Assembly: GCA_030018415.1 (NCBI GenBank)
Contig: JASEGC010000001.1
Coordinates: 323,067-387,066 of the forward strand
Length of the DNA: 64,000 nucleotides
Reading direction: 5' to 3'
Source: Candidatus Aenigmatarchaeota archaeon
Lineage (GTDB): Archaea > Aenigmatarchaeota > Aenigmatarchaeia > CG10238-14
Each line of letters opens with the position of its first letter. Within the stretch, counting starts at the first letter, position 1. The position numbers and the translations under genes were made by a program. The notes under the pieces were generated by a model, which saw only the letters and a program-made list of their open reading frames with translations, was not told the DNA's origin and searched no databases. This document shows positions 48,744 through 61,440 of the stretch, piece after piece.

Positions 48744-49286
48744 CTACAAAGTCAAACGTTTAATACCATAATATGTAACGCATGATTCACCATCAACAAC
48801 TGCCCAGATCATCTCACTCCTAATGTTTTGTGCAAGCCTAACAGCTCTTGATAATTCTGGAAAGGAACAAGAAAATTCTTCAGGAATTGCATGAGCAACG
48901 AATTTTGTGTGCTCAAAGGCGGCTTTAGGTCCTTTCTTTAATTTAACTCCCCTCTCGTAAATTCTAAAATCTGTCCCGAATTTAAACCCAGTCTTTACGA
49001 GAAAACCCCTATCTCTCAAGTCAGTATAAACAACCAATCTTGCATGAAAGTTTCTCTCGTTTTTGACACAATACTCATACAATTCCTCTTTCGATAATTT
49101 TTTTTTCTCATTTTCTTCTTTAACAAAAACGGCTAATTTTCCTTTATTGAACAGAAACATTGCTTCTACTAAGGTTAACTCAAGTCTATCCTCTAAAACT
49201 TTCCCGTATCCAGATTCTTCTAACTCACTAAATGCTTCTTTATCCCAAATGATCACACGCTGTTCTAACAACTCTCCTTCTAACAT
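48744..49286 (-). CDS. endA: tRNA-splicing endonuclease catalytic subunit (about 180-aa alpha-type)
   Basis: 'LRDRGFLVKTGFKFGTDFRIYERG...HTKFVAHAIPEEF' catalytic-domain signature; 180 aa. Confidence 0.8.
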   Translation of the reverse strand: MLEGELLEQRVIIWDKEAFSELEESGYGKVLEDRLELTLVEAMFLFNKGKLAVFVKEENEKKKLSKEELYEYCVKNERNFHARLVVYTDLRDRGFLVKTGFKFGTDFRIYERGVKLKKGPKAAFEHTKFVAHAIPEEFSCSFPELSRAVRLAQNIRSEMIWAVVDGESCVTYYGIKRLTL

Positions 49287-57743: not shown

Positions 57744-57829
57744 TGCAGGGGGAGAGATTTGAACTCTCGAACTCACTAAGAGACTAGGCTCTGAACCTAG
57801 CGCATTTGACCAGACTTTGCTACCCCTGC
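57744..57829 (-). tRNA. tRNA-Leu (anticodon CAG), 86 nt, no intron
   Basis: Manual fold: GCAGGGG-TA-GCA-AAGTCTGGTCAAA-TGC-G-CTAGG-TTCAGAG-CCTAG-TCTCTTAGTGAGTTC(long variable arm)-GAGAG-TTCAAAT-CTCTC-CCCCTGC-A. Confidence 0.8.
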
Positions 57830-58109: not shown

Positions 58110-58235
58110 TGCAGGGACTGGGATTTGAACCCAGGAACTCAATTCTCCAAGATTCATTATATCTTTGTCTAAGAGACAGGATACCTTAACTCATTCTTAA
58201 GTCCTGCGCCTTTGACCAGACTTGGCAACCCCTGC
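58110..58235 (-). tRNA. tRNA-Leu (anticodon UAA) with two predicted introns (13 nt after position 37; 27 nt in the variable arm)
   Basis: Same acceptor/D/T architecture as the CAG isoacceptor. Anticodon arm CAGGA-CTTAAGA...TCCTG is interrupted by 'ATGAGTTAAGGTA'. Variable arm TCTCTTAG...TGAGTTC is interrupted by 'ACAAAGATATAATGAATCTTGGAGAAT'. Mature length after removal is 86 nt, equal to the CAG isoacceptor. Confidence 0.65.
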
Positions 58236-61326: not shown

Positions 61327-61440
61327 TGGACCGGCAGGGATTTGAACCCTGAGCCTCTTCATTGCAGCTTGAAGCTCATGCCTTTTCCGCTGAACTAAGG
61401 AAGCGATCTTGGCATCATTCTACCATTGATCTACCGGCCC
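61327..61440 (-). tRNA. tRNA-Ala (anticodon UGC) with two predicted non-canonical introns (12 nt in D arm; 30 nt at about 33/34)
   Basis: Acceptor GGGCCGG/CCGGTCC with G3:U70 wobble (Ala identity element) and discriminator A; T arm CAGGG-TTCAAAT-CCCTG. Removing 'ATGATGCCAAGA' restores D arm GATC-AATGGTA-GATC. Removing 'AGTTCAGCGGAAAAGGCATGAGCTTCAAGC' gives anticodon arm CTTCC-TTTGCAA-TGAAG and variable loop AGGCT, for a 72-nt mature tRNA. Exact splice positions ambiguous. Confidence 0.55.

Follow-up and report, generated by a model that had tools for sequence, protein, structure and literature searches.

Which alanine tRNA does an archaeon of the Aenigmarchaeota (DPANN) encode ahead of its S13 operon, and in how many pieces? 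The gene in question occupies positions 61327..61440 on the minus strand of the window, the whole stretch of 64,000 nt of DNA that was analysed. Archaeal tRNA genes with up to three non-canonical introns are well known in the Thermoproteales, and multiple introns occur in ARMAN and in Nanoarchaeum (PMC4033280; PMC3239211). "Missing" tRNAs are a recognised problem in DPANN genomes (PMC5829648). A sequence-only reading of the window had proposed tRNA-Ala(UGC) with two introns, one of 12 nt in the D arm and one of 30 nt at position 33/34, and with the anticodon loop UUUGCAA.

In this study, we arrive at a different tRNA. We propose that the gene encodes tRNA-Ala(GGC) and that it is interrupted by three predicted protein-spliced introns of the BHB type, a reading to which we assign a probability of roughly 0.8. 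Hereby the anticodon would lie on an exon of six nucleotides.

Results

The gene and its surroundings

The gene comprises 114 nt, namely four exons and three introns in the proposed reading. Read along the minus strand from window position 61440 to 61327, it is GGGCCGGTAGATCAATGGTAGAATGATGCCAAGATCGCTTCCTTAGTTCAGCGGAAAAGGCATGAGCTTCAAGCTGCAATGAAGAGGCTCAGGGTTCAAATCCCTGCCGGTCCA. Its acceptor stem has 7 bp (GGGCCGG / CCGGTCC, followed by A) with G3:U70 and the discriminator A73, the identity elements of tRNA-Ala, and its T arm is CAGGG-TTCAAAT-CCCTG. Both had been recognised in the sequence-only reading and are present on the minus strand as described. CCA is not encoded. ARAGORN run over the window called only a tRNA-Val and one tRNA-Leu and nothing at 61327-61440; Rfam, at the gathering threshold and at an E-value of 10, added a second tRNA-Leu and gave no match at 61327-61440. 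An independent Logan assembly of SRR23186779 contains the same 114 nt together with an identical upstream flank, and the window sequence is thus no accident of assembly. Upstream of the tRNA gene are the genes for L7Ae, S28e and L24e; directly downstream, at its 3' side, follow S13, S4, S11 and RNA polymerase subunit D. The G+C content of the window is about 34%.

Relatives were collected by scanning genome contigs with S13, by scanning metagenome contigs with a query taken from the 3' portion of the tRNA, and by looking up three S13 homologues. About 70 distinct tRNA-Ala genes were obtained in total from these sources. Nine distinct relatives (L012, L025, L030, L064, L077, L027, L036, which is identical to L080, L058 and L067) have the unusual anticodon region of the window gene, with predicted introns at 33/34 and 39/40, and were aligned with it. 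In all ten genes the pair 3:70 is G:U. The invariant blocks of this alignment are GCTTCCTTA; GG.. (GGAA, GGGA or GGAG) followed by AA; GGCATGAG; CTGC; and GAAGAGGCTC. Between them lie stretches that vary in sequence and length, as one would expect if exons and BHB strands alternate with intron loops that are free to change.

Proposed exons and introns of tRNA-Ala(GGC)

Within the gene we use the coordinate g, which is 61441 minus the window coordinate; all features lie on the minus strand. Exon 1 (GGGCCGGTAGATCAATGGTAG; 61420..61440) holds the 5' strand of the acceptor stem, positions 8-9, the 5' strand of the D stem, the D loop and G22. Those of its bases that have a counterpart in the ten-gene alignment are invariant with the exception of one D-loop position. 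The predicted intron D follows at position 22/23 (12 nt, AATGATGCCAAG; 61408..61419, g22-33), with the helix TGGT:GCCA; moving its cuts by 1-2 nt leaves the product unchanged. Exon 2 (ATCGCTTCCTT; 61397..61407) continues with the 3' strand of the D stem, G26, the 5' strand CTTCC of the anticodon stem, U32 and U33, and is invariant in 10/10 genes. It is followed at position 33/34 by the predicted intron A (14 nt, AGTTCAGCGGAAAA; 61383..61396, g45-58; helix TTCC:GGAA). Exon 3 is a micro-exon of 6 nt, GGCATG (61377..61382), which supplies the anticodon G34 G35 C36 as well as A37, U38 and G39. It too is invariant in 10/10 genes, while the loops of the neighbouring introns vary. The predicted intron B interrupts position 39/40 (16 nt, AGCTTCAAGCTGCAAT; 61361..61376, g65-80; helix GGCA:TGCA). 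Exon 4 (GAAGAGGCTCAGGGTTCAAATCCCTGCCGGTCCA; 61327..61360) provides positions 40-43, the variable loop, the T arm, the 3' strand of the acceptor stem and A73.

Removal of the three introns yields a product of 72 nt, GGGCCGGTAGATCAATGGTAGATCGCTTCCTTGGCATGGAAGAGGCTCAGGGTTCAAATCCCTGCCGGTCCA. ARAGORN calls this 72-mer as tRNA-Ala(ggc), with a perfect 5-bp anticodon stem (CTTCC/GGAAG) and the loop TTGGCAT. The product has an anticodon of the NGC type, a 7-nt loop, U33 and R37. Apart from a few substitutions in stems and loops it equals the spliced or intron-less products of orthologues such as L031 and L012. All 72 exon bases of the window gene are intact.

The anticodon is where this result departs from the sequence-only reading. 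[quoted passage not shown] The 3' border was misplaced and the number of introns is three rather than two: the supposed single intron at 33/34 gives way to two, of 14 nt and 16 nt, with GGCATG between them. The anticodon UGC does not survive, the 'TGC' being the intron strand of the BHB helix of intron B. The short repeats GCTTC and AAGCT, which had been thought to make the borders ambiguous, are parts of the exon and intron helices. An alternative BHB fold of the whole sequence, which had been envisaged with a single intron, does in substance exist, with three.

We consider tRNA-Ala(UGC) very improbable. ARAGORN does accept its 72-nt product as tRNA-Ala(tgc), an alignment to intron-less templates with the fewest gaps picks it as well, and the A that follows TGC would give a normal A37. 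This A is found in the window gene alone; 9/9 relatives have T there, and position 37 would be a pyrimidine in all nine. Comparison with relatives further shows that C31.U39 of this product is a mismatch, the pair 31:39 being unpaired in 10/10 genes, as against C:G at 31:39 in 10/10 genes when the anticodon is GGC. The combination of a 7-nt loop, a fully paired stem and an R37 kept in the homologues is not found for UGC. A BHB search at the 30-nt junction returned 2/4 helix pairs, which is chance level (4496/20000 shuffles were as good), and the invariant GGCATG is left unexplained inside an 'intron'. Moreover, the syntenic gene is GGC at every related locus read. On one relative contig of 723 kb, a two-intron gene (L027) is accompanied by a distinct tRNA-Ala(UGC) gene that is free of introns (L046).

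An intron-less tRNA-Ala(UGC) from a metagenome (L043, Ga0209323_10155267) shares its last 32 nt with the window gene. In SRR23186779, the 3' end of the window gene coincides with a break between two Logan unitigs (the 3' end of L089 and the 5' end of L001), as expected if another gene in SRR23186779 shares that 3' end. Such a gene could be the organism's own UGC isoacceptor.

Predicted splice motifs at the three junctions

The archaeal BHB motif consists of two 3-nt bulges and a 4-bp helix, and enzymes of broad specificity accept the relaxed forms hBH, HBh' and BHL. Cuts were placed after the second base of each 3-nt bulge flanking the 4-bp helix. This rule agrees with the structure of ARMAN-2 EndA bound to RNA, in which A13-U14-A15 form the bulge, with the scissile phosphate at A15, between bulge bases 2 and 3 (PMC12397907).

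All three junctions of the GGC reading form BHB-like motifs above chance level, as judged by 20000 intron shuffles each (a slash marks the cut). Intron A has the helix TTCC:GGAA, the bulges TT/A and AA/G, the outer pairs G26:C36 and C27:G35 and the inner pairs G:C and U:G; 53/20000 shuffles were as good. For intron B, with the helix GGCA:TGCA, the bulges TG/A and AT/G and the inner helix GCT:AGC, the figure is 62/20000. Its helix has 3/4 bp in the window gene, namely 3 bp and a G.A. In the nine relatives the helix is GGCA:TGCT with 4 bp, G.U standing where the window gene has G34.A; among the ten aligned genes this mismatch occurs in the window gene only. Intron D (TGGT:GCCA, bulges AG/A and AG/A, one outer and one weak inner pair) was matched by 333/20000 shuffles and is called BHL-like, as its 5' bulge belongs to a short loop.

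The helix of intron A pairs to 100% in 10/10 genes, with U:A to U:G changes. That of intron B is paired in 97.5% of the alignment cells, and its second inner pair has one change from C:G to G:U. Since the BHB helices hardly vary, covariation support is thin; the predicted motifs rest on conservation plus geometry, covariation proper being weak. About half of the canonical introns of the relatives also fail a strict test for a 4-bp helix, which means that relaxed motifs are normal in the lineage.

In a blind search, any segments bounded by a strict BHB were taken out, at most two from each gene, and every product was examined for a full cloverleaf, U33 and R37. A GGC solution with two introns was found in 9/9 distinct relatives and was the sole solution in eight of them. 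For the full window gene the strict search (4-bp helix, depth 3) gave no full cloverleaf, because the helix of intron B contains G.A. When a single helix mismatch was tolerated, three solutions were obtained, GGC, AGC and AGT, and only GGC and AGC fit the identity of tRNA-Ala.

The AGC solution has the same three introns, with intron A cut one base further 3' (g46-59) so that A34 results. Either border is permitted by the sequence, and ARAGORN chooses this one on the sequence spliced for D and B only. Yet the helix, read from the sequence, becomes UCCU:GAAA with a C.A mismatch, and the orthologues without intron A have G34. Archaea are not known to use A34 tRNAs. We regard tRNA-Ala(AGC) as extremely improbable and retain the border that leaves GGC.

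Several other partitions of the gene were tried and rejected. The MFE fold of the 114-mer is cloverleaf-like with extended D and anticodon arms. It contains a 4-bp helix (g49-52:73-76) with 3-nt loops, from which introns at g48-71 or g55-78 can be derived; their products are unusable. A strict BHB at g36-62 (GCTT:GAGC, inner helix CCTT:AAGG) has good geometry, but once this segment is removed the D stem is disrupted and the loop has 8 nt. When the 29 nt that separate the GCTTC direct repeats are deleted, the stem is perfect, yet the loop again has 8 nt, AGCTGCAA.

The predicted intron in the D arm

Once the 12-nt segment is taken out, the D arm reads GATC-AATGGTA-GATC, identical to that of related intron-less genes. 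On this point the sequence-only reading was right. Within the ten-gene family intron D is confined to the window gene. In the wider clade, three other tRNA-Ala genes have an intron at this site that is arranged in the same way, namely L026 (CGGT:GCCG), L050 (CGGT:GTCG) and L065 (CGGT:ATCG, with a 7-bp inner helix). Compared with the window gene, all three have C instead of T in the exon and G instead of A at the partner base in the intron. Position 22/23 is a recognised non-canonical site of tRNA introns (PMC4090602). A shorter intron of 10 nt (g23-32, helix GGTA:TGCC) was rejected; it leaves a D arm of 17 nt, compared with 15 nt in the relatives, and (C/T)GGT is the register found in the homologous introns.

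These features bear on the possibility that the gene is decaying or inefficiently spliced, i.e. that an ancestral two-intron tRNA-Ala(GGC) acquired the D insertion and a T to A change in intron B and no longer matures properly. The mismatch G34.A and the D insertion are indeed unique to the window gene among the ten. In addition, the primary transcript favours another fold, its MFE structure scoring -45.0 against about -31.5 kcal/mol for the BHB-compatible fold when the latter is scored with its stated pairs alone. Decay would hardly be expected to spare 72/72 exon bases, however, and the sole stem difference in the exons is compensatory: the T-stem pair 50:64 is A:U in the window gene and C:G or G:C in the relatives. 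The D insertion is itself a symmetric BHB at a site which other tRNA-Ala genes use, the relaxed motifs are of a kind normal in the lineage, and the gene keeps its conserved place in front of the S13 operon. Decay or inefficient splicing thus appears quite improbable to us, and we continue with a gene that would be spliced to tRNA-Ala(GGC).

Intron architectures at the S13 locus

At every related locus for which the gene was read, a tRNA-Ala(GGC) lies immediately 5' of S13. Such loci include L002-L004, L038, L040, L041, L031, L022 and L090-L094, in addition to the two-intron family. These orthologues share the locus and a nearly identical predicted mature tRNA with the window gene and differ from it in their introns. 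L004 and L094 are intron-less; L003, L038 and L090-L093 are examples with one canonical intron at 37/38; L012, L027 and others have the pair at 33/34 and 39/40 without intron D. All three introns together occur in the window gene only.

Taken over the relatives, five intron architectures occur at the L24e - tRNA-Ala(GGC) - S13 locus (L002-L094): none; 37/38 only; D arm and 37/38; 33/34 and 39/40; and D arm, 33/34 and 39/40. They make it a good system for the study of tRNA intron gain and loss.

The intron architecture does not track S13 similarity. The nearest S13 relatives (77-83% identity) have a canonical 37/38 intron alone or none, so that the architecture of the window gene is not shared with close kin. 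Elsewhere the A and B pair adjoins S13 proteins of just 44-58% identity. A search for closer relatives found no S13 between 83% and 100% identity, and hence no sister strains in which intron D and the T to A change could be traced.

Two further observations were made among the collected genes. The tRNA-Ala(GGC) of L002 (4860-4946), L003 (4864-4947), L016, L041, L091-L094, L053 and L054 has C33 (loop TCGGCAT) rather than the near-universal U33; in those of these genes that have the canonical intron, C33 pairs with an intron G in the BHB helix. The metagenome genes L014, L071 and L056 carry much longer insertions. These are either D-arm insertions of 37-47 nt combined with 46 nt in the anticodon arm, or one canonical intron of 97 nt.

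A second disrupted tRNA gene is present in the window. This tRNA-Leu(UAA) of 126 nt (58110-58235, minus strand) was missed by ARAGORN and scores 39 bits with Rfam. It has two BHB introns. The first is canonical and 13 nt long (58183-58195), with the helix CTTA:TAAG and a 6-bp outer helix; the second, of 27 nt (58142-58168), is located in the loop of the variable arm and has the helix TCTT:GAGA. The adjacent tRNA-Leu(CAG) at 57744-57829 is intron-less.

A splicing endonuclease and a probable order of splicing

Introns of the BHB type call for a splicing endonuclease, and the window encodes one. EndA, a tRNA-splicing endonuclease of 180 aa (48744..49286, minus strand), has the N-terminal and the catalytic domain (PF02778 and PF01974, both above cut-offs). 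Its best solved relative is the homotetrameric EndA of M. jannaschii (1a79). Between the catalytic Tyr and His it has a Lys-rich insert of 6 residues (KLKKGPKAAF region), which aligns without gaps to N. equitans 3iey_A and ARMAN-2 4fz2_A and is missing in M. jannaschii 1a79. Kaneta et al. link DPANN EndAs with an 'L3' loop to more frequent disruption of tRNA genes (PMC5829648), and the insert may correspond to this loop. Broad-specificity EndAs owe their cleavage of relaxed or non-canonical motifs to a lineage-specific loop insertion, for which this insert is a candidate. Enzymes of the alpha4 type are classically described as requiring strict, canonical BHBs (PMC3239211); that the window EndA resembles this type counts against three relaxed introns. 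Encoded 12 kb from the tRNA gene, EndA is nevertheless presumed to be the enzyme which probably removes all three.

The likely course of events in the anticodon arm can be outlined from the pairings. In the primary transcript the motif of intron A would form, U28-C31 pairing with the GGAA of the intron, and G35 and C36 with C27 and G26. EndA would cut both of the 3-nt bulges that flank the 4-bp helix, in each case behind the second base, and an RtcB-type ligase would join the exons. U33 would then adjoin G34 and the arm could refold, with C31, U32 and U33 pairing with G43, A42 and A41, and G34-A37 with UGC(U/A) of the intron, thereby presenting intron B. This outer helix of intron B (C31:G43, U32:A42, U33:A41) has 0 bp in the primary transcript and 3 bp once intron A is removed. 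As it is possible only after U33 has been joined to G34, intron A is probably removed from the anticodon arm first, and its flanking exons ligated, before intron B is excised. Such an order would prevent the free release of the micro-exon, whose 6 nt are anchored by just one pair in the mature fold. Genes with up to three introns, and introns that require prior removal of a neighbour, are documented (PMC8450103).

Discussion

tRNAs with three introns are known already. What is new is a probable case from the Aenigmarchaeota with an unusually small micro-exon carrying the anticodon. One close likeness is to Thermoproteales such as Pyrobaculum and Thermofilum, which have up to three short protein-spliced introns per gene, relaxed BHB motifs and some non-canonical sites including the D arm, and in which neighbouring introns are removed in order (PMC8450103). 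In contrast to these, the window gene belongs to a DPANN lineage with a mesophile-like genome of 34% G+C, its EndA is a single alpha-type unit without the crenarchaeal loop, and just 6 nt separate two of its introns, between which the anticodon is isolated. The common tRNA intron sites given in a review include neither 33/34 nor 39/40.

Other DPANN archaea, namely ARMAN-2 (Ca. Micrarchaeum) and Nanoarchaeum equitans, resemble the window organism in having many non-canonical and multiple introns; in ARMAN-2 two introns are located within one T loop (PMC3239211). Their EndAs share the insertion between Tyr and His with that of the window. They differ in their architecture, the enzyme of ARMAN-2 being of the three-unit epsilon2 type and that of N. 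equitans an alpha-beta heterotetramer; in the window just the alpha unit of 180 aa is seen, with alpha4 of M. jannaschii as its nearest relative.

A stronger claim may be considered, namely that the anticodon of an essential tRNA resides on a 6-nt micro-exon between 33/34 and 39/40, that it is assembled in a fixed order of cutting, ligation, refolding and renewed cutting, and that this is achieved by an alpha4-like DPANN enzyme of a type classically deemed unable to do so. We advance it tentatively and consider it doubtful as a whole. If true, the occurrence of the A and B pair in distant S13 relatives and not in close ones would point to lateral spread or to repeated loss of tRNA introns at one orthologous locus.

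For genome analysis the gene has a practical side. ARAGORN and Rfam are blind to it and a naive alignment gives the wrong anticodon, so that the annotation of this MAG would lack or mislabel tRNA-Ala(GGC). tRNAs that are missed or mis-typed in this way affect completeness estimates and inferences on codon usage in DPANN genomes. For the biology of tRNA splicing, the window offers a compact natural test case: three tiny introns, probably removed in a fixed order, a micro-exon and, close by, the gene of the cognate endonuclease. It may be used to learn how far a single-subunit DPANN EndA with an extra loop handles relaxed, non-canonical motifs.
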